Positions 180 to 16,233 of a stretch of DNA of 21,993 nucleotides are shown piece by piece. Position 1 is the stretch's first letter; each line of letters begins with the position of its first letter. The position numbers and the translations under genes were made by a program. The notes beneath the pieces were generated by a model, which made no database searches, had not been told where the DNA came from, and was given only the letters and a program-made list of their open reading frames with translations. Origin of the DNA: Clostridia bacterium (GTDB lineage Bacteria; Bacillota; Clostridia; Oscillospirales; Acutalibacteraceae); contig JAFRPB010000153.1 in the NCBI GenBank assembly GCA_017429345.1, forward strand, positions 1 through 21,993, written 5' to 3'.

Positions 180-195
180 CGATAAATCAGAATTT
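180..195 (+). repeat. Copy 1 of the 16-nt motif CGATAAATCAGAATTT. Single half-site, immediately followed by the hairpin terminator downstream of the EF-G2-like gene.
   Basis: Exact 16-mer cgataaatcagaattt read from the sequence. The same 16-mer or its reverse complement recurs at 9271, 11423, 13071/13092 and 13257; one-mismatch copies at 11471, 16188 and 16212. Confidence 0.6.
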
Positions 196-230
196 AAAAG
201 AGCGCCGGTCGATCGATCGGCGCTCTTTTT
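196..230. terminator. Rho-independent terminator hairpin (12-bp GC-rich stem aaaagagcgccg / cggcgctctttt) flanked by T/A runs. Sits 3' of the minus-strand EF-G2-like gene.
   Basis: Perfect inverted repeat 196-207 / 218-229. On the minus strand it is followed by a U-run (revcomp ...CUCUUUUAAAUU). Located 12 nt past the stop codon at 242-244. Confidence 0.55.
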
Positions 231-241
231 GCTGTTCGGAA

Positions 242-2311
242 TTATTCTTCTTCGTTCTTCTTGGACTCTTCGATGACCTTGTCGGCGACGTCCTTCGGCG
301 CGTCCTCATAGCGGACGAACTCGAAGGTGTAGAAGCCTCTGCCGGCGGTGACGGAACGAAGCACGGTGGAGAAGTCGCCCATTTCACCCATGGGAACTTC
401 GGCGACGAGCTTCTGCATGCCGTCTTCGGCGGGCTCCATGCCGAGCACTCTGCCGCGGCGCTTGGAAACGTCGGACATGATGTCGCCGAGATTGTCGGAG
501 GGCATGAAAGCCTCAAGCGTGCCGTAGGGCTCGAGGATCGTGGGCTGCGCCTCGGGGATCGCCGCCTTGAACGCGAGCTGCGCTGCGGTCTTGAACGCCA
601 TTTCGGAGGAGTCGACCGGGTGATAGGAACCGTCGTAAAGGGTCGCCTTGATGCCGACCATCGGATAGCCGGCGATAATACCTCTGGAGATACACTCTCT
701 CAGACCCTTTTCGACCGCGGGGAAGAAGTTCTTCGGTACTGCGCCGCCGACGACTTCCTCTGCGAACTCGAAATCGTCGCCCTCGATGGGCTCGAAGCGG
801 ATAAACACGTCGCCGAACTGGCCGTGGCCGCCGGACTGTTTCTTATGTCTGCCCTGCTTGGAGACCTGCTTGCGGATCGTCTCTCTGTAGGGAACGCGCG
901 GCACTTCGAGGTCGACCTCGACGCCGAACTTGGATTTGAGCTTGGATACGATCACGTCAAGATGCTGCTCGCCGAGGCCCGAGATGATCTGCTCTCTGGT
1001 TTCGTCGGCGATATAGCTCTGCATGCTGGGATCTTCCTGAGAAAGCTTCTTGAGACCTGTGGAGACCTTTTCTTCCTCGCCCTTTTTGCGGACCTTGACC
1101 GCCATCGAAAGGCAGGGATTCGGGAACGCGACGGGATCGAGGCTGACCACTCTCTTTGCGGAGCAGAGGGTATCGCCGGTCTTGAAGTCGTCAAGCTTGG
1201 TGATAACGCCGATGTCGCCCGCGGTGATCTCGGGGATATCCTCGGTCTTGCCGCTCTTGAGAACGATGAGCTTGCCGAGTCTGACGGCGTCGCCGCTTCT
1301 GGAATTGACAAAGCTGCCGTCGGTTTTGATCGTGCCGTCGGCGACCTTGAAGAAGGACATCTTGCCGACGAACGGGTCCGCGACGGTCTTGAAGCAGATC
1401 GCGGCGACCTCCGCGGCGGGATCACATTTCATCGCGACGTCGTTGCCGGCGTCGTCCTTCGCGGTCTCGGGAACCTCGGCGGGGGAGGGAGCATACTTCT
1501 GAATGGCGTTCAGAAGGAAATCCACGCCCTCAAGCGCGAGGGAGGAGCAGGCGTAAACGGGGATCATCTCGCCGCTCTTGACGCCCTGATTCATGCCCTT
1601 GACGATATCGTCGTGGGTGAAGGACTCGCCGAGATCTTCGAAATAGCGCTCCATGAGCTCTTCGTCTGCGGAGGCGACCGCCTCGGTGAACGCCTCGTGA
1701 AGGCTATCGATCGCGTCGTCGGCGGGCATCGCGGTCTCCGCGGCCTTGCCCTTGCTATATGTAAACGCCTTGCCCTGCAGGAAGTTCACGTAGCTGACGA
1801 CCTTGCCGCCCTCGTAGTGGGGAACCACGACCGGGCAGACCGCCGCGCCGTATTTTTCCTTCACGGCTTCAAGGGTCTTGTAAAAATCGGTGTTTTCCGC
1901 GTCGCACTTGGTGATCGCGAAGATCTTCGGCAGCTTGCGGGAATCCGCGGCTTTCACAGCCTTCTCGGCGCCGACGTCAAGGTCGGAGCCCGCCGCCAGA
2001 ACGGTGATCACGCAGTCCGCGGCTCTGACGCCCTCGGAAAGTCCGCCGGCGAAATCAAAGAAGCCGGGCGTGTCAAGAAGGTTGATCTTGACGCCGTTCC
2101 ACTCAAGGCTTGCCGTTGCGGAGGAGACGGAAATGTGTCTCTTCTTCTCCTCGGGATCGAAGTCCATTGCGGTGTTGCCGTCCGCGACGCTGCCCATGCG
2201 GTCGATCGCGCCGGCGGTGTAAAGCATCGCCTCTGCGAGGGTGGTCTTGCCTCTGCCGCCGTGACCGGCGATGGCGACGTTTCTGATGTCCTGTGCCTGA
2301 TAGGCTTTCAT
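242..2311 (-). CDS. Elongation factor G family translational GTPase, EF-G2-like paralog (689 aa)
   Basis: Full-length ORF. N-terminal G domain has P-loop AIAGHGGRGKTTLAEAML and DTPGFFDF (G3), followed by EF-G domains II-V. Its G1 differs from canonical FusA (AHIDAGKTT) and resembles Thermus-type EF-G2 (GHAGSGKTT). AGGAGG RBS 8 nt upstream of the ATG. Confidence 0.85.
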   Translation of the reverse strand: MKAYQAQDIRNVAIAGHGGRGKTTLAEAMLYTAGAIDRMGSVADGNTAMDFDPEEKKRHISVSSATASLEWNGVKINLLDTPGFFDFAGGLSEGVRAADCVITVLAAGSDLDVGAEKAVKAADSRKLPKIFAITKCDAENTDFYKTLEAVKEKYGAAVCPVVVPHYEGGKVVSYVNFLQGKAFTYSKGKAAETAMPADDAIDSLHEAFTEAVASADEELMERYFEDLGESFTHDDIVKGMNQGVKSGEMIPVYACSSLALEGVDFLLNAIQKYAPSPAEVPETAKDDAGNDVAMKCDPAAEVAAICFKTVADPFVGKMSFFKVADGTIKTDGSFVNSRSGDAVRLGKLIVLKSGKTEDIPEITAGDIGVITKLDDFKTGDTLCSAKRVVSLDPVAFPNPCLSMAVKVRKKGEEEKVSTGLKKLSQEDPSMQSYIADETREQIISGLGEQHLDVIVSKLKSKFGVEVDLEVPRVPYRETIRKQVSKQGRHKKQSGGHGQFGDVFIRFEPIEGDDFEFAEEVVGGAVPKNFFPAVEKGLRECISRGIIAGYPMVGIKATLYDGSYHPVDSSEMAFKTAAQLAFKAAIPEAQPTILEPYGTLEAFMPSDNLGDIMSDVSKRRGRVLGMEPAEDGMQKLVAEVPMGEMGDFSTVLRSVTAGRGFYTFEFVRYEDAPKDVADKVIEESKKNEEE

Positions 2312-2353
2312 AAAAATTCCTCCTGTTTTTCAATGCGTTTGTGTAACAGAACT

Positions 2354-2382
2354 ATTCTATCATAAAGAGTAAAAGTTTTCAA
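2354..2382 (-). promoter_or_regulatory. Sigma-70-type promoter for the EF-G2-like gene: -35 TTGAAA, 17-nt spacer, -10 TAGAAT (read on the minus strand).
   Basis: Reverse complement of 2354-2382 reads TTGAAAacttttactctttatgaTAGAAT, about 45 nt upstream of the RBS/ATG at 2311. Confidence 0.45.
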
Positions 2383-2425
2383 TAAGTATTTTTCTGTTTT
2401 TTGGTTTTTTGCGATGATTTTATTT

Positions 2426-2464
2426 AAGACAGCACCGCACAAGCGAATTGTGCGGTGCTGTCTT
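2426..2464. terminator. 17-bp perfect hairpin (aagacagcaccgcacaa-gcgaa-ttgtgcggtgctgtctt) directly 3' of the PHP-family gene. Putative terminator or RNA-stabilising stem-loop.
   Basis: Perfect inverted repeat 2426-2442 / 2448-2464 with a 5-nt loop, 33 nt past the PHP stop. Flanked by A/T-rich sequence but no clean U-tract on either strand. Confidence 0.4.
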
Positions 2465-2496
2465 AAATAAATCGGAATATGTTTCCGCTTTTGTTC

Positions 2497-3384
2497 TCAG
2501 TTCGCGGTCGTCAGCAGCGCGGCGGCCTTGTTCTCCGCGCGTTTCTGCTGCCTTTTCTTTCTCGCTTTATAGTTCAAAAACTCGTCAAGCTGCTTATCCG
2601 TCGGGCTGCAGTCGCCGATCTGGATCGGCTGCACATTGTACATTCCGCGGAAATCCGTGCCTCCGGTCACGAGCAGCTTGTTTTCTTTCGCGATCTTCAG
2701 AAGACGCGCCTTGTCGGTCTCGCTGCAGCTCGGGTGCTCGACCTCGATACCGTCGAGCATGGGAAGCAGCCGCTCAAGCGTTTCGAAGCTGTCGTTGACG
2801 GCGGGGTTCGCGTAGATCGCAAGGCCGCCCGCGTCGTGGATCGCGCCGATGACGTCCTCCGGCGCTTTGAAAACGGCTTTTGTAAGAATAGAAGAAGGCG
2901 AACCCTCGCCGAAAAGCTCGCCGTACAGCTCGCCGTAGATCCGATCTGTGTGGCCTGCGTCCATCAGCGCGTGCATGATGTGAGACGGAAACAGATTTGC
3001 CGACCCGTTGGAGCGTTTCGCGATGAAATCGGAGGGCAACCCGAATTTCGCGACTGTCTTGAACATCATTCGCTGCCCGGCGCTTTTGCGCGCGGTCTGG
3101 TTCTCGTGACAGAGGCCTTCGAGCCTGTCCGGAAAATCCGGCTGATAGCACAGAATGTGGATCTCTTTTCCGGTTTCCGGATCCGTCGCGGACAGATCCA
3201 CGCCCGGCACGACCTCAACGCCCATCTTTTTACCGATCATTTTTCCGCGTACCGTACCGGCGAGGGAGTCGATATCCATAATGGAGATCACGTCGACGCC
3301 GCGCTTTGCCGCAAGCATGACGAGCTCTTCAAGCCCGACGGAACCGTCGGACAGCTTGGTGTGACAGTGAAGATCGCCTTTCAT
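2497..3384 (-). CDS. PHP-domain metal-dependent phosphoesterase, TrpH/YciV (RnaAM)-like (295 aa)
   Basis: N-terminus MKGDLHCHTKLSDGS...VISIMDIDSLAG matches the PHP-family motif (DLH-HT-SDG...TDHD-like) and the ~290-aa length of TrpH/YciV. RBS AAGGTGG 7 nt upstream. Confidence 0.7.
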   Translation of the reverse strand: MKGDLHCHTKLSDGSVGLEELVMLAAKRGVDVISIMDIDSLAGTVRGKMIGKKMGVEVVPGVDLSATDPETGKEIHILCYQPDFPDRLEGLCHENQTARKSAGQRMMFKTVAKFGLPSDFIAKRSNGSANLFPSHIMHALMDAGHTDRIYGELYGELFGEGSPSSILTKAVFKAPEDVIGAIHDAGGLAIYANPAVNDSFETLERLLPMLDGIEVEHPSCSETDKARLLKIAKENKLLVTGGTDFRGMYNVQPIQIGDCSPTDKQLDEFLNYKARKKRQQKRAENKAAALLTTAN

Positions 3385-3763
3385 TAAATTTCATCCACCT
3401 TTCCTGTGATTTCGGCAGATGCCTTACTTGCAGAAGCGCCATCGGTGTTTCCTTGTGAAGAGGGTAAACGGTAACGGGAGCAACGGTTTTCGCCTTGTGG
3501 GCGGCAATTCAGGCATATCCTGTTTGTGATTTTTATGTATTTTTGACACTACTACTCGAAATTTTATCTTTTTAATGATCCTATTCTACACTATCCGGAA
3601 GATTTTTTCAAGCTTTTTTACGAAATATGTGTTTTTTTGTGAAAAAATATTATAATAGACAACTGATAATCAAATAAAAACAGCTTGATTTATCCGAAAA
3701 ATACAAAAAATCGGATCGCGCGGAGCGTAAATGTAAAATTTTTTTCGGCGTCTTCACGTAAAA

Positions 3764-3801
3764 AACGGAGAGCGCGGACGGTCCGGTCCGTTCTCTCCGT
3801 T
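3764..3801 (-). terminator. Rho-independent terminator for the esterase/GH3 operon (minus strand).
   Basis: Stem aacggagag / ctctccgtt enclosing a GC-rich loop. On the minus-strand RNA it is followed by UUUUUUAC. Lies 34 nt past the stop of the 3835..4875 gene. Confidence 0.55.
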
Positions 3802-3834
3802 CTGCGGTTTTCTTTTTTTCGCTTTTTCTCGCCG

Positions 3835-4875
3835 TTATTCCGCGAGAAAATCAAAAGAACGCGCGCCGTGCACGCGGTGGCGGCCGTCGAATTCGTCGAC
3901 GGTCAGCGCGTCCTCCGCGCCGAAAAGGCGGTAGACCCGTCTTGCCCGTTCGTGCGCGTCGCGCGCGCCTTCGATCGGGAACAGCGGGTCGCGCGTCCCG
4001 GACTCGATCAGGAGCCTCCTCGGCGCGACCGCGGCGGCGAGATCGCCGATCTCGCCGATGCGCAGGATACCGGGGATATAATTGTCCGGGCAGTGCCAAC
4101 GCGCAAGAATGCTCTCGCGGAAGGTACAGGCGTAGCCGCTGACGACCGCGCGGGCGAAGCGTTCGTCCGCCGCCGCGGCGTAAAGCGCGGCAAGCCCGCC
4201 GCCGGAAATGCCCATCACGCCGAGCCGTCCGGGGTCGGTCCCGGGCAGGGACAAAAGAAAGTCCGCGCATGCGATCGCCTGAAACACCCGCACCCCGGCG
4301 GTGTTGAGTCCGTAGATCAATAGGTGATGCGACACCGTGTCGCAGGAGCTCGCGTAAAACGGCTTGCGCAGGTCTTTTGCAAGGCGCGCCTGACCGAACG
4401 CGACCGGCTCCGGCGCGGCGACGATACAGCCGCGCTTCACAAGCTCAAGCGCGAAATGCCGCTGATAATCGTCAAGATACGGCAGACGTTTCGGGCGGTC
4501 GTTTTTCGTCACGCCGATGATCTGCCGCACGCCGTAGCCGTGTCCGCAGAGGGCGACGACGCCCGGCGCGGGGGCGGAGAGCTTCCGCGGCGTCAGCAGA
4601 TAGACCGCGGCCGTCAGCCCCGGCAGCAGCGCGTGCGCGTATTTCTGTATCGTATAGTCTTCCGCGCAGATCGGTTCGCCGACCGGTACGGGTGAAGCGT
4701 TCGTTCTCATATTTTCAAGCACGGGCAGCGCGAGGACTTCGCGCAAGGTTTGCCTGACTTCTTCCGCCGCCGCTTCCGCGGATGCTTTATCACAGACGGA
4801 AGCGAACGGCTCCCCGCGCAGCGTATCGTAAAGCCCGTTCAGAAAGCCGTCCGGGCAGTAATCCTTCCGGGTCAT
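3835..4875 (-). CDS. Alpha/beta-hydrolase fold esterase, probable carbohydrate esterase (dienelactone-hydrolase/acetyl-esterase-like), 346 aa
   Basis: Nucleophile elbow GISGGG (G-x-S-x-G), HGYG oxyanion-like motif and a C-terminal acid/His region. Its start ATG overlaps the GH3 stop (ATGA), implying co-translation with the glycosidase. Confidence 0.6.
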   Translation of the reverse strand: MTRKDYCPDGFLNGLYDTLRGEPFASVCDKASAEAAAEEVRQTLREVLALPVLENMRTNASPVPVGEPICAEDYTIQKYAHALLPGLTAAVYLLTPRKLSAPAPGVVALCGHGYGVRQIIGVTKNDRPKRLPYLDDYQRHFALELVKRGCIVAAPEPVAFGQARLAKDLRKPFYASSCDTVSHHLLIYGLNTAGVRVFQAIACADFLLSLPGTDPGRLGVMGISGGGLAALYAAAADERFARAVVSGYACTFRESILARWHCPDNYIPGILRIGEIGDLAAAVAPRRLLIESGTRDPLFPIEGARDAHERARRVYRLFGAEDALTVDEFDGRHRVHGARSFDFLAE

Positions 4876-6956: not shown

Positions 6957-7024
6957 AAAAGCGCGCTCCTTTCCCGATCCTTCTTCCATTGTATAAAATA
7001 TTCCGCCGCAATGCAATCTTTTAT

Positions 7025-7053: not shown

Positions 7054-7083
7054 AAAGACAGAAAGAAAAAGGAGAGACGGAAA

Positions 7084-9084
7084 ATGCAGATACTGAAAGT
7101 CATTTTGTCGGCGCTCTTGTCTTTGATCAGCGTGTTTACGACGAACGGATTCGGCAAATATACGCCGCATCTCGCGGTGATCCCGGACCTCGTGCGCGTC
7201 GGTGCGGAGGCGCTGCGTCTGAACGTATGGGACGGCGCGCCGGATAAAAAAGAAGTCGCCGCGGCGCTTGAGAATGCAGAGGTCCCGCACCCCTTCGTGC
7301 TCGCGGGCGCGGAGCGGTTCGACCTTCTGCGCTTAGAGTTTGCTTCCGGCGGGGCCCCGGAATACGCTTCGGATCTTCTGAAGTACGTGCTCGCGAACGC
7401 GGACGCGCTGCTCGATACGCAGGTTTTCCCGCCCCTTGCCTACGAGCTCGACGAGGAGAACAGCATCCTGCCGATCTCCCGCGAGACCATGAACCGCATC
7501 GTGATCCTGGGCCTTGCGCGGCAGGTCACGGGCGAGGAAAAATATTTCACTCGCGCGTGGGAAGAGCTCGAGAACGTCTGCAATTATCCCGACTGGTGCA
7601 CCGGGCATTTTCTCGCCACCGCGGAGATGGCGCTCGCCGTCGCGGTCGGGTACGACTGGCTGTATGAGGATCTGACCGACGCGCAGCGCGATCTGCTCGC
7701 CGAAACGACGCTGCAGTACGCGATCAGGCCCGCGATCTCGGCGGTGAATACGGGAAAATGGTACACAACGACGAAGAACAACTGGAACAGCATCTGTTAC
7801 AGCGGTGTCGGCATCGCCTGTATGACGCTTGCGGACCGGTACCCCGCGGAGGCGGCGAAATACCTGGCGAGATGCTTTAAGTATATGCCCGCGGCGTATG
7901 AGAATTTCACGCCGGACGGCGTGTATATCGAGGGCCCGGGCTACTGCGAATCCGGCATGAACGCGATCGTGTATTTCATCGCCACGGCGCGGGAGCGCTT
8001 CGGCACCGATTTCGGCATGTCGGAGCTGCCCGGCTTCCGGGAGCTGGGCATGTTCCCGGTCTATATCTCCGGCAGCGTCGGCGAATTCAATTTCGGCGAC
8101 AACCGGAACCGCGCGTTTTATTCCCCCGCGCTGGACTGGTACGCGGCGAATTATAACGAGCCGCTGCTGGCGGTGCATCAGATGAGCGGCGGCGTGGGCG
8201 AATACGCCGCGGGAGAGCCGGTCTATACGGAATCGAACGGCGACGGCAGGGAGAACGCGCTCTCGGCGCTCTGGTACGACCGCTCGTTCACGGGCGACAG
8301 AGCGCAGTTCTCTTCGCAGCCGAAGAGCGTCTATCTGCGCTCCGACTGCGGGCAGGAGCTGGTGCTGATGCGCTCGGCGTATCTTGAAAAAAACGCGTTC
8401 TTCGTCGGGATGAAAGCGGGCGACAATTTCATCAATCACGGCGATCTCGATATCGGCACCTTCGTTTACGACGCGCTCGGCGAGCGCTGGGCGGCGGAGC
8501 TCGGTCCCGGACCCTACGACGCGCCGGGGTATTTCTTCAACCCGCCCGCGGGCGGCCGCTGGCGCAATTACTGCAAGCGCGCCGAGGGGCAGAATACGCT
8601 CGTGATCAATCCGGATATGACGCTTGACGATCAGTACGCGCTCGCGCGGTGCGTATTCTCCGACGTGGAGATCGGCGACGGCGGCGGCGCGTGCCGGATC
8701 GATCTGACGGACGCCTACCGCATGAACGGCGCGATAAGCGCGGTGCGTTCGTTCGCCTTCGACGCGGATACCGGCGCGCTGACGGTCGCGGACGAGGTCA
8801 AATGCCTTGTGAAAAGCGATATTTACTGGTTCATGCACACCCGCGCCGCGATCGAAATTTCCGAAGACGGCAAAACAGCCGTGCTGAAGCAGAACGGCAA
8901 ACAGATCACGGCCGTTCTCTCGGGCGACGGCGAATTCTCCGTGCGGGAATGCGAATCGCTTAAACCGAATTACGTTTATCCCGAAACGCACGACGGCGTG
9001 CGCAGACTGACCGTCGCGCTCACCGGCGTGCGCGAGGCGAATATTTCGGTACGGCTGGCGCCGGAAATCAGAATATGGAGATAG
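7084..9084 (+). CDS. Secreted heparinase II/III-like polysaccharide lyase family protein (666 aa)
   Basis: N-terminal signal peptide (MQILKVILSALLSLISVFT). Central (alpha/alpha) toroid-type motifs (WNSICYSGVGIACMTLAD) and a C-terminal beta-sandwich with NHGDLDIGTFVYDALGERW, typical of the heparinase II/III-like (alginate/heparin lyase) fold. Divergent from the GH3 operon. Confidence 0.55.
   Translation: MQILKVILSALLSLISVFTTNGFGKYTPHLAVIPDLVRVGAEALRLNVWDGAPDKKEVAAALENAEVPHPFVLAGAERFDLLRLEFASGGAPEYASDLLKYVLANADALLDTQVFPPLAYELDEENSILPISRETMNRIVILGLARQVTGEEKYFTRAWEELENVCNYPDWCTGHFLATAEMALAVAVGYDWLYEDLTDAQRDLLAETTLQYAIRPAISAVNTGKWYTTTKNNWNSICYSGVGIACMTLADRYPAEAAKYLARCFKYMPAAYENFTPDGVYIEGPGYCESGMNAIVYFIATARERFGTDFGMSELPGFRELGMFPVYISGSVGEFNFGDNRNRAFYSPALDWYAANYNEPLLAVHQMSGGVGEYAAGEPVYTESNGDGRENALSALWYDRSFTGDRAQFSSQPKSVYLRSDCGQELVLMRSAYLEKNAFFVGMKAGDNFINHGDLDIGTFVYDALGERWAAELGPGPYDAPGYFFNPPAGGRWRNYCKRAEGQNTLVINPDMTLDDQYALARCVFSDVEIGDGGGACRIDLTDAYRMNGAISAVRSFAFDADTGALTVADEVKCLVKSDIYWFMHTRAAIEISEDGKTAVLKQNGKQITAVLSGDGEFSVRECESLKPNYVYPETHDGVRRLTVALTGVREANISVRLAPEIRIWR
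9064..9078 (+). repeat. Degenerate copy (13/15) of the motif, gaaatcagaatatgg, inside the last codons of the lyase gene.
   Basis: Shares the exact 10-mer aaatcagaat plus a following tgg with the 13260-13274 copy. Chance expectation for a 10-mer in 22 kb is ~0.04. Confidence 0.3.
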
Positions 9085-9111
9085 GAGGTTCGGAAGTAGG
9101 AGGTTCGGAAG
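9082..9111 (+). repeat. Perfect tandem duplication of the 15-mer TAGGAGGTTCGGAAG (two SD-like GGAGG elements), beginning at the lyase stop codon.
   Basis: 9082-9096 and 9097-9111 are identical. They are followed by the palindrome aagtcgcttcgcgactt (9109-9125). Confidence 0.6.
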
Positions 9112-9270
9112 TCGCTTCGCGACTTGAATAGAAGAGAGAGTAAAGGAAAAACCGTTGCAAATCATAACAATTTTGCTTGTTTTACCGTTTCTATAATTGG
9201 GGTATGGGGCGGAGCCCCATCATTACCTCCTCCCTCCTCCTTCCTACTTCCTCCTTCATCGGGCGCAGCC

Positions 9271-9286
9271 CGATAAATCAGAATTT
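9271..9286 (+). repeat. Copy 2 of the CGATAAATCAGAATTT motif. Single half-site immediately 5' of the RBS of the first WYL-like gene.
   Basis: Exact 16-mer. GAAAGGAG RBS begins 1 nt after the motif, ATG at 9300. Confidence 0.6.
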
Positions 9287-10520: not shown

Positions 10521-11431
10521 CCTTTTTCAGCGAGCTTTACGGCGCTTATTACAACGCTGTCGCGAAGATCCTTGCCGCCGCCGTGCAAAGCCCCGTGACG
10601 AAGGAGGATATCCGCCGCATCGTGCGGGAGAACGCCTTCGCCGAAAGCGGGATTGAGATCGAATCGGCGATCTTCGCGCGATGGCAGCTGCTTGACGAGC
10701 GGGGCGGAACGCCGCTTCGGCATGTGCCCACGACACCCCTGACGCATCTGCAGAAGCGTTGGCTCAAGGCGGTCTCTCTTGACCCGCGTCTTGCGCTATT
10801 TGACGCGCCTTTTCCGGAGCTCAAGGGTGTGGAGCCGTTGTTTCAACCGGAGGATATCTGTGTGTTCGACCGTTTCACGGACGGCGACCCCTATGGGGAC
10901 GAAACCTATATTCGCATATTCCGCATTATGATGAGCGCGGTGCGGGAGCGGACGCCGCTTTACGTCGAGATGCTTGCCCCGAGAACAGGTGCGCGGAAAA
11001 TGATTCTGCTGCCCCTGAAGCTGGAATATTCTGAAAAGGACGATAAATTCCGTCTGCTTGCGGCGGACGGCAGGGGAGAGGTTACATTGAATCTGGCGCG
11101 GGTCACGCTGTGCCGTCCCTATGACGGTGCGCCGGTGCATTTTGCGAACCCGGCGGATTTTGCCGGCAATCGGGAAGAACGCAACTTTGTGCTTGAACTG
11201 ACGGAAGAGCGCAACACTCTTGAGCGGGTGATGCTGCATTTCGCCCATTTCAGAAAGGAAGCCCGGCGGGCGGAGAACGGCAGATATCTTGTAAGAGTCT
11301 TTTACGAGCGTCCGGACGAGACGGAGCTGGTGATCCGCGTGCTCTCATTCGGCCCCACCGTGACCATCCGCGAACCGGACCGGTTCGCCGGACTGGTGAG
11401 AGAACGGCTTTTGAAACAGTATAAATTCTGA
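10517..11431 (+). CDS. WYL/WCX-like putative regulator, paralog 2 (304 aa), translationally coupled to paralog 1 (PafB/PafC-like pair)
   Basis: C-terminus LVIRVLSFGPTVTIREPDRFAGLVRERL closely matches the conserved WCX tail of WYL regulators (...[VI]LSFGP-V-VLEP-ELRE...). WYL-like segment LPLKLEYSEKDDKFRLLAADG...LNLARVTLCR. GGAGG 10 nt upstream. Stop TGA lies inside motif copy 3. Confidence 0.5.
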   Translation: MTFFSELYGAYYNAVAKILAAAVQSPVTKEDIRRIVRENAFAESGIEIESAIFARWQLLDERGGTPLRHVPTTPLTHLQKRWLKAVSLDPRLALFDAPFPELKGVEPLFQPEDICVFDRFTDGDPYGDETYIRIFRIMMSAVRERTPLYVEMLAPRTGARKMILLPLKLEYSEKDDKFRLLAADGRGEVTLNLARVTLCRPYDGAPVHFANPADFAGNREERNFVLELTEERNTLERVMLHFAHFRKEARRAENGRYLVRVFYERPDETELVIRVLSFGPTVTIREPDRFAGLVRERLLKQYKF

Positions 11432-11486
11432 TTTATCGTTCTGCCGTGATACCATGTGCGCTTGACTCCGCGACAAATCAGAATTT
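11423..11486. repeat. Inverted pair of the motif (AAATTCTGATTTATCG ... CGACAAATCAGAATTT) around a 32-nt spacer. The left arm overlaps the WYL paralog-2 stop codon.
   Basis: 11423-11438 is the exact reverse complement of the 16-mer. 11471-11486 is a 15/16 copy (T to C at position 4) in direct orientation. Confidence 0.6.
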
Positions 11487-11491
11487 AACTT

Positions 11492-11527
11492 CGCATCTTT
11501 TTTTCCGTGAAAAAGGTGCGTTTTTTT
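11492..11527 (+). terminator. Rho-independent terminator after the WYL gene pair: stem cgcatcttttt / aaaaaggtgcg (one G-U), 7-nt loop, then TTTTTTT.
   Basis: Inverted repeat 11492-11502 / 11510-11520 followed by a T7 run at 11521-11527. Confidence 0.5.
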
Positions 11528-11535
11528 GTTATACT
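11527..11535 (+). promoter_or_regulatory. Extended -10 element TGtTATACT immediately after the terminator. Candidate promoter for the long leader/SPFH transcript.
   Basis: TG at -15/-14 followed by TATACT. Weak -35 (cgtgaa). The downstream ~430 nt carry no credible ORF before the SPFH start. Confidence 0.3.
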
Positions 11536-11962
11536 CTTCCTGCAGGATCGCCAGAGCGGGCGCTTCGCGGGAAGCCGCGGCGCTGCGGTGCACAGGATGA
11601 TATCCTTTTTATGTATGCCGGCGATGCTGCGGCGCGTGATAAGCGCATCGTGCAAGGCCGCACATTATTGCGGGTTCGACTCCCGCCGCGAGCAAATCGT
11701 GACCGATGGTTGGTGTTTATTGAGGAACTGCATTTTATGCGTCAGTTGCACAGAAAAAAGAAACGGCGTTCCGGCGAATCGATGCGGAAAATCTTCTCCC
11801 GCGTTTTCGCAGCGCGGACGGAGCCCTGCCTTTCGGCGGATACCGCTTTGCAAAACGGAAGACCGAATTATCCGTCTTTCGCCGGTCGAAGCTCAAGCCG
11901 GGAGCCGCCCCGTCGGCGCGGAACGCCGCGACGCGATCAACCTTTTAGGAGGAATATATATT

Positions 11963-13072
11963 ATGAAAAAAAGTATGATCAAAAAGACCGTCGTTCACGA
12001 GAACGAAAGAGGCCTGCTGTTCAAAAACGGCAGGTTCGTCCGCAGGCTCCTGCCGGGCAGATACTACGCCGTCGGCGACAGCGAGATCGAAACGCTGCCC
12101 GTGTCCGCGCCGCTGCGATCGGCGTTCTGTGAGACGCAGACGCTTCTGCGCGACCCGCAGATCGCTTCGGAGACCGCCCGCGTGGACGTTCGCGACAGAC
12201 AGAGGGCGCTGCACTATGCGGATGGCAGGTTCAAAGAGCTGCTTCCCGTCGGTACACACGTATTCTGGACCGCCGCCGGCGCACACGAATTCCGCGTGCT
12301 GGACGCCTCCGTTCCCGATCTGCCGGAGGATTTTCCCCGCGACATTCCGGCTGACATTCTCGGCAGTGACGTCTGCACGTTTGTGATCCATGCCGAAGAG
12401 GTAGGACTGCTGTTCGTCAACGGCAGGTTCGACCGTCTGTTGGAAGCCGGCGTCCACGCGTTTTGGGATCTGCCTGAGTTCCGGGTCTCCGTACGCTGCA
12501 GCGATACTCAGCTGCAGCAGATGAATATCTCCTCGCAGGAGCTGCTGACCGCAGACCGGGTCACGATCCGCGTCAATTTTGTGGTCGGCTGGCGCGTCAC
12601 CGACCACGTCCGTGCGGCGTTGGAGCTGGACAATCAGACAGAACTGCTTTACACCGCCGCGCAGCTGGTGCTGCGGGAGGTCGTCGGCAAATACCGCCTT
12701 GACGAGCTTCTGGAACATAAAGAGGCCCTCTCCGGCGAGGCGCTGGAGCTGCTGCGCAAAAAAGCGGAGTCCCTCTTCGCCGAGGTGACCGACGCGGGCG
12801 TAAAGGATATCATTCTGCCCGGCGAGGTGCGGGATATCATGAACACTGTCCTGGTGGCGGAAAAGCGCGCGCAGGCCAACGTCATTACCCGCCGTGAAGA
12901 GGTCGCTTCCACCCGTTCGCTGCTCAACACGGCGAAAATGATGGAAGAGAATCCCACGCTTTATAAGCTCAAGGAGCTGGAATATGCGGAGCGCATCTGC
13001 GAGAACGTGGGAAATATCAACCTCAACGGCGGGGACCTGCTCGGCGGGCTACTGGCGGTGTTGGGAAGGTAA
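11963..13072 (+). CDS. Cytoplasmic SPFH/band-7 (stomatin-prohibitin-flotillin-HflKC) domain protein with a triplicated N-terminal motif (369 aa)
   Basis: AGGAGG RBS 10 nt upstream of ATG 11963; the 5' extension of the ORF track is Arg/Cys-rich junk. SPFH core (RVNFVVGWRVTDHVRAALELDN...LREVVGKYRLDELLEHKEAL...VKDIILPGEV...AEKRAQANVITRREE), then a coiled-coil tail. Three N-terminal repeats of G-LLF-NGRF---LL-G-H-FW. No N-terminal TM helix. Confidence 0.65.
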   Translation: MKKSMIKKTVVHENERGLLFKNGRFVRRLLPGRYYAVGDSEIETLPVSAPLRSAFCETQTLLRDPQIASETARVDVRDRQRALHYADGRFKELLPVGTHVFWTAAGAHEFRVLDASVPDLPEDFPRDIPADILGSDVCTFVIHAEEVGLLFVNGRFDRLLEAGVHAFWDLPEFRVSVRCSDTQLQQMNISSQELLTADRVTIRVNFVVGWRVTDHVRAALELDNQTELLYTAAQLVLREVVGKYRLDELLEHKEALSGEALELLRKKAESLFAEVTDAGVKDIILPGEVRDIMNTVLVAEKRAQANVITRREEVASTRSLLNTAKMMEENPTLYKLKELEYAERICENVGNINLNGGDLLGGLLAVLGR

Positions 13073-13107
13073 ATTCTGATTTATCGCGGAGCGATAAATC
13101 AGAATTT
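13071..13107. repeat. Perfect 37-bp palindrome built from two inverted motif copies, AAATTCTGATTTATCGC-GGA-GCGATAAATCAGAATTT, starting inside the SPFH stop codon.
   Basis: Read directly; both 17-nt arms are exact reverse complements with a 3-nt spacer. Stop TAA at 13070-13072. Confidence 0.7.
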
Positions 13108-13252
13108 AGTCCCGAGTTTCAAGCCCCGAGTCTCGATGCGATAATTTTCAGTCAGGATAATAAATGGAAAAACGTATTGTTTCCTGCTGTTTTACCAAGA
13201 CGCACGAGCTTACCTCACGTATCTCGGAACTCGGAACTCGGGACTCGGGACT
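13108..13252. repeat. Inverted arrays of the heptamer CTCGGRA flanking an 85-bp AT-rich core: two copies on the left in reverse orientation, four perfect tandem copies on the right.
   Basis: Left arm agtcccgagtttcaagccccgagtctcg (13108-13135). Right arm ctcggaa ctcggaa ctcggga ctcggga (13223-13250). The right arm is immediately followed by motif copy 5. Confidence 0.5.
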
Positions 13253-13256
13253 TTAT

Positions 13257-13272
13257 CGATAAATCAGAATTT
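13257..13272 (+). repeat. Copy 5 of the CGATAAATCAGAATTT motif. Single half-site immediately 5' of the RBS of the hypothetical gene, embedded in the local palindrome TTTATCGATAAA.
   Basis: Exact 16-mer. GGAAGGAG RBS starts 1 nt after, ATG at 13286. Same motif-RBS-ATG layout as at 9271. Confidence 0.6.
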
Positions 13273-13285
13273 GGAAGGAGAAGCC

Positions 13286-13840
13286 ATGAAACATACTGTC
13301 GACCGCGGAGAGCTTTGGGACGCATGTAATTATTCCTTTCAATATGCTGATAAGTTTCCCACACGATATTATAATATCAACGACGAACGCATCGAAGCGC
13401 TTGAGGATGTTCTCGTCGCGCTGAATATTCCACAGACCCGATTTCAGACTTATTATTATGATTACGATTATATCCCCATTCCCGTGACGCCGCTGGTGCC
13501 CGCGCTGAAAGCCTACGTCGAAACGGTGAACGATAAAAACATCCGCCGTGCGCTGCGCGACGTGCCGGATGACAGATACGAATGCGCTTTTAACCGTATC
13601 TGTTGGGATGACCGGGAATTCCGTCACGGCTGGAATGAGTTTTCCGCGGATATCGTAAACGGGGTCTGTGAGCGGTGGTGCGCGGAATACAATGTGACGC
13701 CGATCCGGGATCCCAGATGCGCATGGACCGGGGAAAAAGACAGGGAGTTCAATGCCGCTTCCGCCCGCAGAATGCAGAAAGAATATGAAGCGTCGAAAGG
13801 GCGGTTCCGAAGATATCGGAAAGAAAAGAGCAAATATTGA
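13286..13840 (+). CDS. Hypothetical Cys/Trp-rich protein with a basic C-terminal tail (184 aa), no recognisable family
   Basis: Good RBS (AGGAG, 5-nt spacer). Codon usage consistent with neighbours. Conserved-looking Cys pairs (CAFNRICW, VCERWCAEY, PRCAWTG) and a KGRFRRYRKEKSKY tail. Directly upstream of the rtcB remnant with an 24-nt gap. Confidence 0.45.
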   Translation: MKHTVDRGELWDACNYSFQYADKFPTRYYNINDERIEALEDVLVALNIPQTRFQTYYYDYDYIPIPVTPLVPALKAYVETVNDKNIRRALRDVPDDRYECAFNRICWDDREFRHGWNEFSADIVNGVCERWCAEYNVTPIRDPRCAWTGEKDREFNAASARRMQKEYEASKGRFRRYRKEKSKY

Positions 13841-13864
13841 ATTTTTAAAGGAAGTGAACCGGAA

Positions 13865-14192
13865 TGATTGCCGTTTACGGAAAATACAATACAGCCCTTT
13901 GCTACTGCTCCGTTTCGGAGGAGGCTGCGGCGGAGCAGATCAGAACGATTTGCGACAGGGCGAGTTCGCGGCTTCGTGTATCCGCATCATGCCCGACGTG
14001 CACGCCGGCAAAGGCTGCACCATCGGCACAACGATGACGCTGACCGACAGGGTCGTGCCCGCGATGGTCGGCGTCGATATCGGCTGCGGAATGCTCACGG
14101 TCAAGCTGAACGCGCGGGAGCTTGACTTTGCCCAGATGATCATCTGCCGCTGCGGTTCCGTAACAGGGGGCGTGCAGTTTATGGAGAAATAA
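13865..14192 (+). pseudogene. rtcB: RtcB RNA-ligase remnant: N-terminal ~110 codons only, with a -1 frameshift near 13950, then truncation
   Basis: Frame-2 start MIAVYGKYNTALCYCSVSEEAAAEQIRTICD continues in frame 0 as (Q)GEFAASCIRIMPDVHAGKGCTIGTTMTLTDRVVPAMVGVDIGCGM. This matches the N-terminus of bacterial RtcB (MPDVHxGxG...VGVDIGCGM). Re-reading the shared c at the junction restores ...ICDQGEFAASCIRIM. The ORF ends ~35 codons after GCGM, whereas intact RtcB is ~400-480 aa. Followed by a terminator and a low-GC gene on the opposite strand. Confidence 0.6.
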
Positions 14193-14224
14193 TATTGGCT
14201 CACCGATTTTTTTTTACAACTCAA

Positions 14225-14260
14225 AAGCCGAGAATCACCAAAGTCAGTGGTTCTCGGCTT
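14225..14260. terminator. Rho-independent terminator (10-bp stem aagccgagaa / ttctcggctt) shared by the convergent rtcB remnant and the membrane-protein gene.
   Basis: Perfect stem around a 16-nt loop. The minus-strand RNA continues UUUUGAG. The plus strand has T9 just before the stem. Confidence 0.6.
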
Positions 14261-14300
14261 CTTTGACGCTGTTTATTTACATCCTTTTATTTACTTTGAT

Positions 14301-15950
14301 TTAAGGAGTTGTCATAATCTGAACTAAAATAACATCTTTGTTTTCAATAATACGAAATCGGCTTGTCGGATCGTTTGCAACAACCATTTTTCTTGCTTCT
14401 GCCTTTTGCTCCGCGGAACAGGATTGCAGCGAATATCCCAACCTCTGCATGACCCGCAGGTAATTATCATTATAAGCCCATCCTATATAAGAAGTGTACG
14501 CAGTAAACGAATCGGCAATTTGATCTGCAAGTTCTTCCGAGGATCGGAATACATATCCATAACCCCGCACTTTATCATAGAATCTTTTCGGCAGAACATT
14601 ATCAAACAACAAAGCTGAATATTTTCTGTACTGTGTCATTATAAGATTCGGCTCGTTTTTGGAATGCCGCAAGCTTTCGGGAAGTTGATAGTTTTCCGCC
14701 GAAAACACAACCGGCTTGCTTTGCGTATCATATTCGAGCAGCTCTTTTCCTATATCCTGCAGCAGAGAGATCTCATAAGTGTGTCTTTCAAAATTATCAA
14801 CTGCGTAATTATTGATATCTTTCGTTTGATTTAAAACGATTACCACCAGCACACATGAAATAACAATGTGCAGTTTTTTGTTTTGGCGGCAATACAGAAA
14901 CAACAGCATAATGACAAACGCAACAAAAACGGAAAGCGTCTGCATCTGTCTGAATTCAACCATACGCCCAATGAGCAGCGGAAGCGAAACCACAGACAGA
15001 CACAATATGATAAAAATGCATGCGGGGAACAAGGATCGTTTTTTCACGGAAAGCAAAACAGCCCCTGTCGTTCCGATAACGACGGTAACAAGAAACATCA
15101 GCAAAAACGGAAGAGAAATGCTGCCGATAACAAATGAGGTGAACATCATAACGATAAACCGAACCAGATTTTTGATCGGAGCTCCGGACAGCCAATATAT
15201 TTTAGTATTCGGCTCATACCAAAATTTCGTTGTACCGCAAATGACAAGATTGACCAGCTTTGATATGATAAGATCTACAATAACAGCTGCAAGCAGCAGG
15301 CCGACAGCCATCGCAGCAAGAACAAGATAATCCTTTATACCTGCTGTTGTTCGGTTATCATAATAAAAAAACAGCAAAAGAGACGCAAAAAAACCAACCA
15401 AATATACACTCGCAAAAGATTCGTACATATCTACGGCGGGAATCAACGCAAGCAAAGAAATAACTAACCGTTTTACAAGGTGTTTTTTGTCAGCAAATCC
15501 CAAATAGAGCTGGCAGAGTGAAACAGGAACCAGAACGTATGCCAAAACGATATTAAGAACCGGATACGTCAGCTGTGCGGTAATCACGGGATAGGATACA
15601 AAAACCGTACCAAACGCAATTTGCGCCGATTGGGGAATTTTATCTCCGGATACGACTGAAAACAATACGGACCACGCAACAGATGCACAAAAGAGAATAA
15701 TCGCCGTTAATGCAGTATGCCAGAACGGGGCAAAATTCATCCAATTTGTTAACAAATGAATCAAAGGCGTCGCCCATCTGCCGGCACCGACCAATATGGA
15801 TCCATTGTAATACTCCGGCATCAGCTGATCAATATGGATTGAGTAGTGACTTGCATAAAAGCCATAAGAGAGTATCAGCGTAATGACAACGGATATTATG
15901 TACCCCTTATTGCGGGACAAAAACGATAAAACAGAATTCGGTTGGTTCAT
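14301..15950 (-). CDS. Polytopic integral membrane protein (>=11 predicted TM helices plus ~170-aa C-terminal soluble domain), possible GT-C-fold glycosyltransferase-like. Low-GC, likely horizontally acquired.
   Basis: Long hydrophobic segments throughout (e.g. YIISVVITLILSYGFY, LTAIILFCASVAWSVLFSVV, LLLAAVIVDLIISKLVNLVI). GC ~42% versus ~60% around it. Start placed at MNQPNSV (15950), which has GGAG 6 nt upstream; the ORF-track start MEYYM (15962) has no RBS. Functional call is by architecture only. Confidence 0.55.
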   Translation of the reverse strand: MNQPNSVLSFLSRNKGYIISVVITLILSYGFYASHYSIHIDQLMPEYYNGSILVGAGRWATPLIHLLTNWMNFAPFWHTALTAIILFCASVAWSVLFSVVSGDKIPQSAQIAFGTVFVSYPVITAQLTYPVLNIVLAYVLVPVSLCQLYLGFADKKHLVKRLVISLLALIPAVDMYESFASVYLVGFFASLLLFFYYDNRTTAGIKDYLVLAAMAVGLLLAAVIVDLIISKLVNLVICGTTKFWYEPNTKIYWLSGAPIKNLVRFIVMMFTSFVIGSISLPFLLMFLVTVVIGTTGAVLLSVKKRSLFPACIFIILCLSVVSLPLLIGRMVEFRQMQTLSVFVAFVIMLLFLYCRQNKKLHIVISCVLVVIVLNQTKDINNYAVDNFERHTYEISLLQDIGKELLEYDTQSKPVVFSAENYQLPESLRHSKNEPNLIMTQYRKYSALLFDNVLPKRFYDKVRGYGYVFRSSEELADQIADSFTAYTSYIGWAYNDNYLRVMQRLGYSLQSCSAEQKAEARKMVVANDPTSRFRIIENKDVILVQIMTTP

Positions 15951-16187
15951 GTAATACTCCATGAATTATTATAATCAACAGCCCACACGAAAACGGGTGT
16001 TTCTTCTTTCAGCAGAGGGAGATCCGCGCCTCGTTCCCCATTTATAAATAACGGTGTCGGACGCTCATATTTTTTCATCGGGTACGGGCAGAGGTCGTCC
16101 GCCATATGGCGCAGCCGCATATCACACGCGAAACGTATATCATCCGCAGTAGGCGAATATCATTCGGCAACGCCGAATATCATTGCA

Positions 16188-16233
16188 AAATTCTGGTTTA
16201 TCGAGGCATGAATGCCTCGATAAACCAGAATTT
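16188..16233. repeat. 46-bp near-perfect palindrome made of two inverted variant motif copies, AAATTCTGGTTTATCGAGGCAT-GA-ATGCCTCGATAAACCAGAATTT, ending 3 nt from the ddh stop codon.
   Basis: Both 22-nt arms are exact reverse complements. The core differs from the other copies by one base (ACCAGAATTT vs ATCAGAATTT). On the minus-strand RNA the stem is followed by AAUUUUGC, so it may also terminate ddh. Confidence 0.65.

Follow-up and report, generated by a model that had tools for sequence, protein, structure and literature searches.

A hairpin-forming extragenic repeat, solo and composite, dispersed beside unrelated genes of uncultured GC-rich Clostridia

The stretch of DNA analysed here (the window: 21,993 nt of contig JAFRPB010000153.1 from a Clostridia bacterium) contains a 16-nt motif that recurs around the genes of a central island, two of which encode adjacent WYL proteins. 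A reading made from the sequence alone had offered two explanations, an operator of the paired WYL regulators or a palindromic repeat of the REP/BIME kind, and the question is which of the two the motif represents. The 16-mer is an arm of a short repeat able to form a hairpin, here called H, and not a WYL control site. We estimate at roughly three in four the probability that it is the arm of a repetitive extragenic palindrome belonging to a dispersed family, with both solo and composite members.

The 16-mer and the hairpin it forms

A scan of the window detected nine copies of the 16-mer that are exact or differ at one position, and a tenth that differs at two. The expectation from dinucleotide shuffles is 0.00 matches compared with the 10 present, and the motif noticed in the sequence-only reading is therefore real. 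Exact copies are located at 180(+), 9271(+), 11423(-), 13071(-), 13092(+) and 13257(+), and one-mismatch copies at 11471(+), 16188(-) and 16218(+). The last of these had been placed at 16212, which is correct for the start of an extended 22-nt arm, whereas the 16-mer proper begins at 16218. The two-mismatch copy was missing from the earlier list and could be a relic or a chance match. All three arrangements of arms described earlier were recovered, namely single arms, perfect hairpins (13071-13107 and 16188-16233), and an inverted pair (11423/11471) with a 32-nt spacer. The single arms end directly before the SD, 13 nt 5' of ATG 9300 and of ATG 13286. The further statement that the motif brackets every gene unit holds for the WYL-1/WYL-2 unit and the SPFH unit, whereas the stretch with hyp184, the rtcB fragment and GtrII is bracketed only as a whole. 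The copies outside the composite repeats, together with one adjoining terminator, are as follows.

175..195 (+): half hairpin, with the loop-half 'ctccc' and the arm CGATAAATCAGAATTT; it adjoins the EF-G terminator (196-230), and its partner arm is lost
11423..11486 (+): hairpin whose arms are separated by a 32-nt insert; its left arm contains the WYL-2 stop, TGA (11429-11431)
11492..11527 (+): canonical intrinsic terminator directly 3' of the 11423-11486 hairpin; it ends the WYL operon and lies outside the repeat
15924..15939 (+): two-mismatch copy of the 16-mer within the 5' part of the GtrII-like coding sequence
16188..16233 (+): solo hairpin, its 22-nt arms separated by a 2-nt spacer, 3 nt from the ddh stop (16237-16239), at the right edge of the island

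The layout of H is AAATTCTGATTTATCG, a self-complementary apex of 2-14 nt, and CGATAAATCAGAATTT, for a total of 37-46 nt, and its arms lie 2 to 32 nt apart. Across 60 distinct copies 93.6% of cells are paired, and compensatory double changes are found at 9 of the 19 stem pairs (63 cells). None of 500 shuffles reached these values of pairing and covariation, and pairing drops to only 32-48% when the partner arm is slid out of register. The apical stems vary in sequence yet remain complementary (AGC/GCT, GGGCG/CGCCC, AGGCAT/ATGCCT). Within the window, the arms at 16188-16233 contain a compensated A>G / T>C change (TGGTTT/AAACCA) and have a predicted fold of -33.2 kcal/mol, while the hairpin at 11423-11486 scores 46.9 bits with the covariance model and has a predicted fold of -35.6 kcal/mol including the terminator.

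H stems have a GC content of 27-38% and are not followed by a T-run. The intrinsic-terminator scan called only 11492-11520 and no H hairpin. H hairpins are not classical terminators because they have no U-tract, and we rejected the identification of H as an intrinsic terminator, which combines a GC-rich stem with such a tract. Stem mismatches in the sense orientation comprise 7 G.U and 9 A.C; the counts are symmetric and therefore give no strand-specific sign of selection on RNA, and strand-specific selection on H was rejected. No Rfam family reached the gathering score in the window or in 8 composite-carrying loci. Many of the window copies are decayed, with arms deleted at 180, 9064, 9255 and 13252.

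Composite repeats

H is commonly the end module of a composite repeat of 200-320 bp, and it also occurs alone. The order of modules in the composite is H, tandem heptamers, a core with one to three small hairpins, inverted heptamers, and H. The segments 9064-9286 (composite A) and 13071-13272 (composite B) of the window are two decayed composites, with the following parts.

9064..9076 (+): composite A, remnant of the left hairpin with the right arm GAAATCAGAATAT, now translated as the terminal codons of a heparinase-like ORF (7084-9084)
9082..9112 (+): composite A, left tandem array with two copies of AGGAGGT TCGGAAGT (TRF, fold)
9113..9227 (+): composite A, core with small hairpins; GGAAAAAC...TGTTTTACC is common to the core of composite B
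9228..9257 (+): composite A, right inverted-heptamer array, TCCTCCT, 4.3 copies (TRF), pairing with 9082-9112 in the fold
9255..9286 (+): composite A, right hairpin with truncated left arm, TTCATCG-ggcgcagcc-CGATAAATCAGAATTT, then the SD and ATG 9300
13070..13108 (+): composite B, left hairpin of 'type 1', with a 5-nt spacer between the arms, a 17-18 bp stem and a 3-nt loop
13108..13136 (+): composite B, left array of 4 GTCCCGA-like heptamers (inverted repeat, fold)
13137..13222 (+): composite B, core (sequence, fold)
13223..13252 (+): composite B, right inverted-heptamer array, CTCGGAA/CTCGGGA, 4.3 copies (TRF, fold)
13252..13272 (+): composite B, right hairpin, collapsed to TTTATCG directly followed by ATAAATCAGAATTT, then the SD and ATG 13286

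The copy at 9064, described earlier as degenerate, is indeed a copy: comparison with an 85%-identical relative (L322) shows a surviving right arm and deletion of the left arm of the hairpin. The relative keeps an intact hairpin, TAAATTCTGATTTAGC-gga-GCTAAATCAGAATTT, at the matching point, where it provides the TAA stop, and its heparinase-like ORF has 660 aa compared with 666 aa in the window. The right hairpin of composite A gives a weak covariance-model match at 9246-9286. The left hairpin of composite B scores 61 bits with the covariance model and folds at -22.5 kcal/mol (z = -8.6), and the TAA stop of the SPFH gene consists of T13070 and the first two A of its left arm. The predicted folds of the two window composites are -75.1 (z = -6.4) and -77.4 (z = -3.1) kcal/mol.

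We aligned five composites of one MAG and four from three other MAGs end to end. In these nine composites the similarity ends exactly at the outer arms and the flanks are unrelated. The number of heptamer copies per array ranges from 4 to 13. Every composite is bounded by inverted 16-mers, in the manner of terminal inverted repeats, and outer arms alone, with 130-290 nt between them, are found at three places (L024 1368-1538, L075 3774-4077, L200 6046-6193). The idea that the composite is an invertible promoter ('inverton') was rejected; among the 11 composites that could be classified, 9 share one fixed arrangement and the core is flipped in 2, which is too few to argue for switching. A promoter scan called no sigma-70 promoter inside the composite cores.

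Dispersal, gene borders and turnover

A genome scan for the motif yielded at least 114 blocks. Among the blocks listed, at least 47 contain two or more arms (median GC 0.61), and at least 7-9 separate 8-kb blocks come from each of the MAGs RUG14340, RGIG5665, RUG340 and JAZSAA01. Members of the family are scattered over many contigs from at least ten Clostridia MAG species, and the family constitutes a set of non-coding dispersed repeats of a clade of uncultured GC-rich rumen and gut Clostridia. Motif-positive blocks contain one further element cluster per ~9 kb beyond the cluster that brought the block in, and 6 hairpins occur in a 36-kb stretch fetched via gene anchors. The density is about one copy per 6-9 kb, from which the copy number per genome is an extrapolation. 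Copies elsewhere adjoin MnmA, a SpoU methylase, MetN, PcrA/UvrD, aminotransferases, a TagF-like enzyme and a SpoIIE-like protein, and a prophage copy sits between the portal and terminase genes. A composite gave no blastn match among annotated plasmids and phages, neither full 16-mer was found in the literature, where shorter 13-mers matched only unrelated papers, and keyword searches of the literature returned no description of such an element in Clostridia.

This distribution bears directly on the operator explanation, by which dimers of the adjacent WYL-1 and WYL-2 (PafB/PafC-like) recognise the half-sites in 5' UTRs as well as the inverted 16-mers and thereby control their own operon together with SPFH/hyp/rtcB. 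Copies do directly precede the WYL-1 and hyp184 SDs, and WYL-2 ends in one, with 7 copies within 4 kb around the WYL genes, and both proteins have sub-threshold WYL and WCX Pfam matches (the NCBI label for WYL-1 is 'WYL domain-containing protein'). However, a search allowing up to 3 mismatches found no upstream copy at 80 loci (807 kb) with a WYL-1/WYL-2 pair of 51-59% identity, the covariance model gave 0 matches at the same 80 loci, and WYL loci with GC of 0.54-0.58 are likewise without a copy. On other contigs H adjoins dozens of unrelated genes, mostly housekeeping genes and also prophage genes. Arm spacing of 2 to 32 nt and compensatory changes in the arms fit a hairpin in a nucleic acid and not a duplex operator of fixed geometry, and the 'half-sites' before two SDs are truncated hairpins. 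The operator explanation is largely refuted and has hardly any chance of being right, which removes a false lead. The absence of copies at the 80 loci therefore favours the other proposal made from the sequence, that of a REP/BIME-like repeat, which is also supported by dispersal beside unrelated genes, covarying hairpins, overlap with stop codons and position at the ends of the island.

At 29 of the 43 gene 3' ends that face an outer arm, the stop codon overlaps the arm (16 as T+AA, 9 as an internal TGA and 4 as a TGA at the arm edge). The opposite end of the element is often 12-27 nt before an SD and ATG. Composites are found in both orientations with respect to transcription.

Comparisons between relatives reveal both differences in the presence of the element and its persistence. 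Two loci that are ~90% identical (L024 and L048) differ in its presence at several junctions, and the 3' end of ddh has H in the window compared with an intrinsic terminator in the 85%-identical relative. Both species have the element at the 3' ends of the heparinase and EF-G genes, each with arm variants and decay of its own, and at the orthologous EF-G site of another locus (L324) a complete short-form hairpin immediately follows the EF-G terminator. Look-ups of the EF-G protein of the window gave no record. We found no clean pair of filled and empty sites, as strains that are 97-99% identical carry identical elements and the intergenic regions of 85-90% relatives are too diverged to define an exact insertion point; insertion of the element, and its target, are presumed.

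The island itself is an example of a recently exchanged set of genes whose borders coincide with dispersed hairpin repeats. Homology between the window and the 85%-identical relative breaks at 9068 and resumes at 16237. Between 8985 and 9458 the divergence from two strains (L317 and L319) drops to 0.2%, compared with 2-3.5% before, and it increases once more at 16245. Inside the island (9.07-16.24 kb) the strains differ by 0.2-0.9%, except for a short 8% patch in hyp184, compared with 2-10% in the flanks. The edges of the recombination tracts and of the island fall at H copies.

Known repeat systems and possible modes of spread

REP and BIME of Enterobacteria and REPINs of Pseudomonas are mobilised by RAYT transposases (PMC3116915). 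H resembles these systems (PMC3116915) as a short, imperfect and extragenic palindrome, capable of forming hairpins by its folds and covariation, that is highly repeated and dispersed (with an extrapolated number per genome) and occurs singly or clustered with specific linkers. Further shared features are predicted hairpins in ssDNA or mRNA, location at gene 3' ends and within operons, decaying singlets, and arm variants within one genome that suggest concerted evolution. Unlike them, H has no sequence similarity to these repeats, its stem is AT-rich in a GC-rich genome, and no GTAG is found 5' of the stem in the flanks of 60 hairpins and 9 composites, where T is merely frequent. The inverted tandem-heptamer arrays of the composite, which differ in sequence between sub-families, are absent from REP/BIME/REPIN. 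No RAYT gene, which the sequence-only reading had suggested looking for, was found near H copies in a small sample of sequence (the portion from the clade is about 0.5 Mb).

Several other families share part of this architecture. Miniature elements derived from IS200/IS605 (PATEs) have hairpins at both ends, sharp ends, a non-coding interior and no target duplication. The composite matches this description, although its two terminal hairpins are near-identical palindromes and not distinct left-end and right-end structures, and no parent IS200/IS605 element, TnpA or TnpB was found for H in the limited sample. In BOX of Streptococcus pneumoniae, an intergenic repeat built of modules, the number of internal tandem sub-units of 45 nt varies; the composite is likewise modular with a variable internal tandem number, whereas its unit is 7 nt, its arrays are inverted and its sequence is unrelated. 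Correia elements of Neisseria have a terminal-inverted-repeat hairpin that is co-transcribed with neighbours and is a plausible RNase III substrate, and they duplicate a TA target. H would be a comparable hairpin, likewise transcribed together with adjacent genes and plausibly cut by RNase III, although no TA target duplication was seen and the sequence is unrelated. Intergenic heptamer tandem repeats are known from cyanobacteria (STRR), and the TAACTGA repeats of Beggiatoaceae are direct repeats of one specific heptamer (PMC4679880). The arrays described here share with both the intergenic position, often just 5' of start codons, the 7-nt period, the range from 2 to more than 10 copies and the lack of a known mechanism; unlike both, they form inverted pairs around a core, are capped by H and comprise many different heptamers. 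The family represents a REP-like system in uncultured Firmicutes with an unusual inverted-heptamer module.

Because no transposase was found, we can only infer how the element spreads. The elements may propagate as non-autonomous units through a single-stranded hairpin intermediate. The likeliest agent would be a trans-acting HUH/Y1 enzyme of the IS200/IS605 or RAYT type, since the elements have terminal hairpins and no target duplication. Arm complementarity could be kept by template switching or by gene conversion within and between copies. Hairpins inserted in an operon might then act on the mRNA, shielding the upstream cistron when located at its 3' end and the downstream cistron when located just before its SD, and the long heptamer stem would offer a target to a double-strand RNase. 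Scattered copies may also supply homology for rearrangement and island exchange.

Searches for the enzyme covered a clade sample of only about 0.5 Mb, and their negative outcomes are weak evidence. A regex screen found no Y1 transposase near copies, phmmer with IS200 and ISHp608 TnpA probes had no match in 2.75 Mb, and Pfam scans of the genes flanked by copies detected no transposase. The genes between paired arms 0.9-3.6 kb apart are housekeeping or phage genes, and no transposases, in this limited sample. Two candidates for an autonomous element were rejected on their contents: two viral contigs with arms 3058 nt apart contain prophage portal, terminase and repressor genes, and two contigs bounded by arms at both ends (L008 and L093) contain housekeeping genes. 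In the two prophage contigs each gene junction has its own hairpin.

Spread by transposition is challenged by the notion that H is immobile RNA punctuation of operons, selected by the host to set mRNA stability or processing and copied mainly via duplication and recombination. The elements do leave little room between the stop codon before them and the SD after them, their predicted folds are very stable, and the copies at the EF-G and heparinase 3' ends persist across 85%-identical species. We nevertheless consider this improbable: G.U does not exceed A.C on the sense strand, elements lie in both orientations relative to transcription, copies occur in prophage, and many copies have lost arms (at the four sites listed above). 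Near-identical, sharp-ended copies of 200-300 bp at unrelated loci are, moreover, a copy-and-paste signature. A mobile element of another type, a classical MITE moved by a DDE transposase that binds the outer 16-mers as duplex terminal inverted repeats, has in our estimate a slim chance. It would agree with the outermost position of inverted 16-mers in every composite, with the copies that consist of outer arms only, and with the T before the left arm and the A after the right arm (25 of 44 each). Stop codons and terminator T-runs account for the flanking T, and no target-site duplication was seen at the seven composite ends with both flanks in the alignment or at solo hairpins, so that a TA or TAA duplication is unsupported. 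The apical stems are palindromic despite their varying sequence, which a terminal-repeat model does not need, and no insertion sequence with these ends was found in a limited sample.

We give almost no credence to the proposal that H copies are site-specific recombination sites delimiting gene cassettes in the manner of integron attC. Conserved arms around a variable self-complementary centre, the location at gene 3' ends and bracketing the WYL and SPFH units, and the coincidence of both island edges and of the switch in strain divergence with copies are reminiscent of such sites. They are outweighed by copies on many contigs beside core genes in both orientations, by window ORFs among which neither an integrase nor any other recombinase lies within the island or next to it, and by arms that, read directly, have no GTTRRRY/RYYYAAC core.

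The repetitive extragenic palindrome, then, is the reading that we prefer. More speculatively, the composite might be a previously undescribed self-propagating module of 'operon punctuation', whose H copies also serve as joints of island exchange between strains; we regard this bolder version as rather unlikely. In such a module two protective end hairpins may flank a cleavable long stem, with the heptamer sequence free to change.

The repeats also affect how these genomes are assembled and annotated. Assemblies break at repeats, and many copies are found 80-140 nt from the end of a contig. Assemblies of rumen and gut Clostridia are fragmented by the repeats, as contigs end at them, and both annotation and binning of the clade would gain from masking or modelling them. 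The ends of ORFs are likewise created or extended by the repeats, in that arms supply stop codons and one ORF of the window reads six codons into an arm.

The 16-mer hairpin and its positions in the window

The 16-mer CGATAAATCAGAATTT occurs exactly at 180, 9271, 11423 (minus strand), 13071 (minus strand), 13092 and 13257, and with one mismatch at 11471, 16188 (minus strand) and 16218. Its GC content is 25%, compared to 55–63% in the window, and dinucleotide shuffles of the window gave no matches to it. The three configurations distinguished by the sequence-only reading (single half-sites, palindromes with short spacers and a widely spaced inverted pair) are correct on re-reading of the sequence. 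A further copy with two mismatches (15924–15939) sits within the opening codons of the GtrII-like gene, in a low-GC insert, and may be a relic or a chance match.

Gene map of the window, from gene calls for the source contigs and Pfam scans
242–2311, minus strand, EF-G
2497–3384, minus strand, PHP-domain protein
3835–4875, minus strand, α/β-hydrolase (Abhydrolase_7)
4872–6956, minus strand, GH3 glycoside hydrolase
7084–9084, heparinase-like
9300–10520, WYL-1
10517–11431, WYL-2
11963–13072, SPFH
13286–13840, hyp184
ORF ending at 14192, RtcB 5' fragment
14301–15950, minus strand, GtrII-like gene in low-GC DNA
16237–17223, minus strand, ddh
17475–19301, glmS
about 19.7–21.9 kb, BspA-LRR/dockerin protein

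The 16-mer makes up one arm of a hairpin, here called H, whose usual form in multi-arm blocks is AAATTCTGATTTATCG, a short spacer and CGATAAATCAGAATTT. The commonest spacers measure 5 nt (c-NNN-g, type 1) or 9–10 nt (agc-NNN(N)-gct, type 2), and in both types the spacer ends lengthen the stem. Among 60 distinct H hairpins, pairing is kept in 93.6% of cells, with double-sided changes at 9 of 19 stem pairs (63 cells); one compensated change, TGGTTT/AAACCA, is seen in the copy at 16188. None of 500 shuffles attained any of the pairing measures, and sliding the partner out of register left only 32–48% pairing. Predicted folds of H examples from the window have energies of −22.5 and −33.2 kcal/mol (z-scores −8.6 to −11.3). 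In the EF-G/PHP intergenic region, a perfect inverted repeat of 24-nt arms and a 5-nt loop (2419–2471; TTTATTTAAGACAGCACCGCACAA / TTGTGCGGTGCTGTCTTAAATAAA) looks like a bidirectional terminator with no relation to the motif.

Composite elements and heptamer arrays

H often caps a larger repeat, whose order is H, 4–13 tandem heptamers, core, reverse-complement heptamers, H. The core comprises 1–3 small hairpins, in the commonest sub-family AAATCCC-nnnn-GGGATTT and GAAATCC-nnnn-GGATTTC, and the heptamers vary by sub-family (TAGTGGC, TTAGGGG/TTAGGTT, AGGAATG, GGAACAG, GAGACYC, AGGCATT, ATTTAGT). Period-7 arrays are strongly enriched, those of at least 3.5 copies lying mostly 0–10 nt from an arm. 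The window contains composites at 9064–9286 (heptamer AGGAGGT, predicted fold −77.4 kcal/mol) and 13071–13272 (GTCCCGA, −75.1 kcal/mol). The right-hand H is truncated in both, which is why single half-sites had been described immediately upstream of the WYL-1 and hyp184 SDs.

Nine composites (five of MAG RUG14340, the other four of three further MAGs) were aligned over their full length between the outer arms: similarity ended exactly at these arms, the flanks were unrelated and no target duplication was visible. Judged from this alignment, the pattern is typical of a repeat unit that is discrete and dispersed. Of 11 composites that could be classified, 2 (comparison loci L055, 6589–6801, and L022, 15–242) have the core flipped with respect to the two kinds of terminal hairpin, a pattern that an occasional inversion event between the inverted arrays of heptamers would produce.

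The modular build and variable number of internal repeats recall BOX elements, and the arrays resemble the heptamer arrays of cyanobacterial STRR. They also recall the TAACTGA repeats of Beggiatoaceae (PMC4679880).

Arrays also occur without H. Right after the glmS stop (19314–19402), 5.5 copies of the tandem octamer GTCGTGAA precede GCTATCC-like heptamers, and no H hairpin is present. GCTATCC/CTGCTGC heptamers also fill gaps between genes in the viral contig L314 (IMG/VR, GC 0.61), where nearly all intergenic gaps are taken up by heptamer arrays (about 30, with up to 17.6 copies; e.g., 1370–3660), including (ACATTTC)x11 and (ATGTGAA)x10 inverted around one gene. Arrays without H are also present in L022 and another locus, L048, so heptamer arrays may be a separate phenomenon in this clade.

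Dispersal, gene context and kinship

An exact-match scan with the 16-mer, covering one genome per species, matched at least 114 blocks. Of the blocks listed, 67, from many phyla and mostly of low GC, contain a single copy; by our estimate, this many matches could arise by chance for a 16-mer searched over ~1.2 × 10^12 positions. Uncultured rumen and gut Clostridia MAGs are the source of the 47 with at least two arms (median GC 0.61); among the matches listed, four of these MAGs give at least 7–9 separate blocks each. The H family is one of clade-restricted, dispersed, hairpin-forming, sharp-ended repeats, and it prefers sites between a stop codon and the SD that follows it. With coding direction inferred from GC3, the stop codon overlaps the outer arm at 29 of 43 element ends into which a gene runs: 16 are TAA (flanking T plus the first two A), 9 are the internal TGA and 4 are TGA at the arm edge. 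Proteins stopped at the internal TGA therefore end in Lys-Phe, as does WYL-2. At the opposite element end, an SD and ATG often lie within 12–27 nt. Elsewhere, copies flank a diverse set of genes (MnmA, a Cys/Met PLP enzyme, SpoU methylase, EamA transporter, MetN, a TagF-like enzyme, aminotransferase, GFO/IDH oxidoreductase, PcrA/UvrD, a SpoIIE-like gene and, by our reading of the ORFs, phosphoglucomutase-like and RluA-like genes); in a prophage, H lies between the portal and terminase genes.

The sequence-only reading had offered two explanations, an operator for the adjacent WYL regulators or a REP-like palindromic repeat. WYL-1 and WYL-2 can plausibly be assigned to the WYL/WCX regulators; both have sub-threshold Pfam hits, and WYL-1 carries the NCBI name "WYL domain-containing protein". 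The pair (9300–11431; L117–L196) resembles a PafB/PafC-type pair and is adjacent across many gut Clostridia (GC 0.34–0.58), in every metagenome locus long enough to show it (80 loci, 51–59% identity). SPFH and rtcB do not form a fixed module with it, since SPFH follows in only one of the 80 loci (L152) and hyp184 and rtcB were detected in none. Across these loci (807 kb), the 16-mer was not found upstream of the homologues at up to three mismatches, and a covariance model of H had no matches; the same model finds three intact hairpins in the window, plus a weak fourth match at the truncated hairpin 9246–9286, and it finds six in a 36-kb stretch from a relative. The motif-free WYL loci, variable arm spacing, covariation and genome-wide distribution lead us to reject the operator, and the repeat reading is supported: H is a real feature of an ordinary kind, namely an intergenic repeat similar to REP elements and MITEs.

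H works most like REP/BIME/REPIN and IS200/IS605-derived miniature elements. As to RAYT/REP family marks, there is no GTAG at H and no RAYT was found in ~0.5 Mb of clade DNA. Membership among DDE-MITEs fails for want of a target duplication. H is neither an attC site nor a WYL operator. We found no Rfam family and no annotated plasmid or phage sequence that matches the element, and our literature search found no paper describing it. Its architecture, from an uncultured clade, has no description in these sources.

IS200/IS605- or RAYT-type Y1 enzymes yield terminal hairpins without target duplication. RAYT transposases mobilise REPINs (PMC3116915). H probably spread as a non-autonomous element via a single-stranded hairpin intermediate, with arm complementarity maintained by template switching or gene conversion; no transposase was found in the ~0.5 Mb of clade DNA, and no clean empty site was recovered. 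On mRNA, a 3' hairpin could protect the upstream cistron, the long stem could be a substrate for double-strand RNases, and a 5' hairpin beside the next SD could protect the downstream cistron. A DNA-level or selfish origin is favoured over a host-selected RNA element, because sense-strand stem mismatches show no G.U-over-A.C bias (7 vs 9) and both orientations occur. Having no U-tract, H is not a classical terminator; a true terminator lies directly 3' of the H at 11423–11486.

Turnover and recombination borders

The elements are identical in strains 97–99% identical to the window (L317–L319). RGIG2774 (L322/L324, 85% identical) shares only 3565–9068 and 16237–19310, the second part inverted, and has other genes in place of 9069–16236. 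At the left edge of this island, H lies at the heparinase stop in both genomes. It is intact in L322, where it supplies the TAA; in the window its left arm is lost, and as this deletion removed the TAA, six codons of the arm that remains are now read as part of the ORF (9061–9084), giving 666 aa versus 660 aa in L322. At the right edge, H lies 3 nt from the ddh stop in the window, whereas L322 has a classical terminator and a heptamer element without H. At the EF-G 3' end, a terminator is followed by H in both species, with species-specific arm variants (TTTAGC vs TTTATCG), a pattern that suggests concerted evolution or re-insertion. Element content also differs at several junctions between L024 and L048 (~90% identical). 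The family shows turnover between relatives and coincides with recombination borders.

Divergence between the window and L317/L319
up to 8985, 2–3.5%
8986–13548, 0.2%
13549–13694 (inside hyp184), about 8%
13695–16244, about 0.9%
from 16245, 5–10%

The island diverges by 0.2–0.9% while its flanks diverge by 2–10%, which indicates, from these comparisons, that the segment between two H copies was recently exchanged, with a small mosaic tract inside (the hyp184 patch). The proposal that the motif marks cassette junctions is supported in part, for this one island bounded by two H copies. The island itself looks like a patchwork of rearrangements, since the "rtcB" ORF (13865–14192) covers just the 5' part of such a gene (positions 11–64 of the 426 in the Pfam RtcB profile), its last ~24 nt match the 3' end of a DegV gene in L322 (GGGCGTGCAGTTTATGGAGAA-TAA), and it is followed by a low-GC (0.40–0.47) segment, 14193–16000, with the GtrII-like glucosyltransferase gene.
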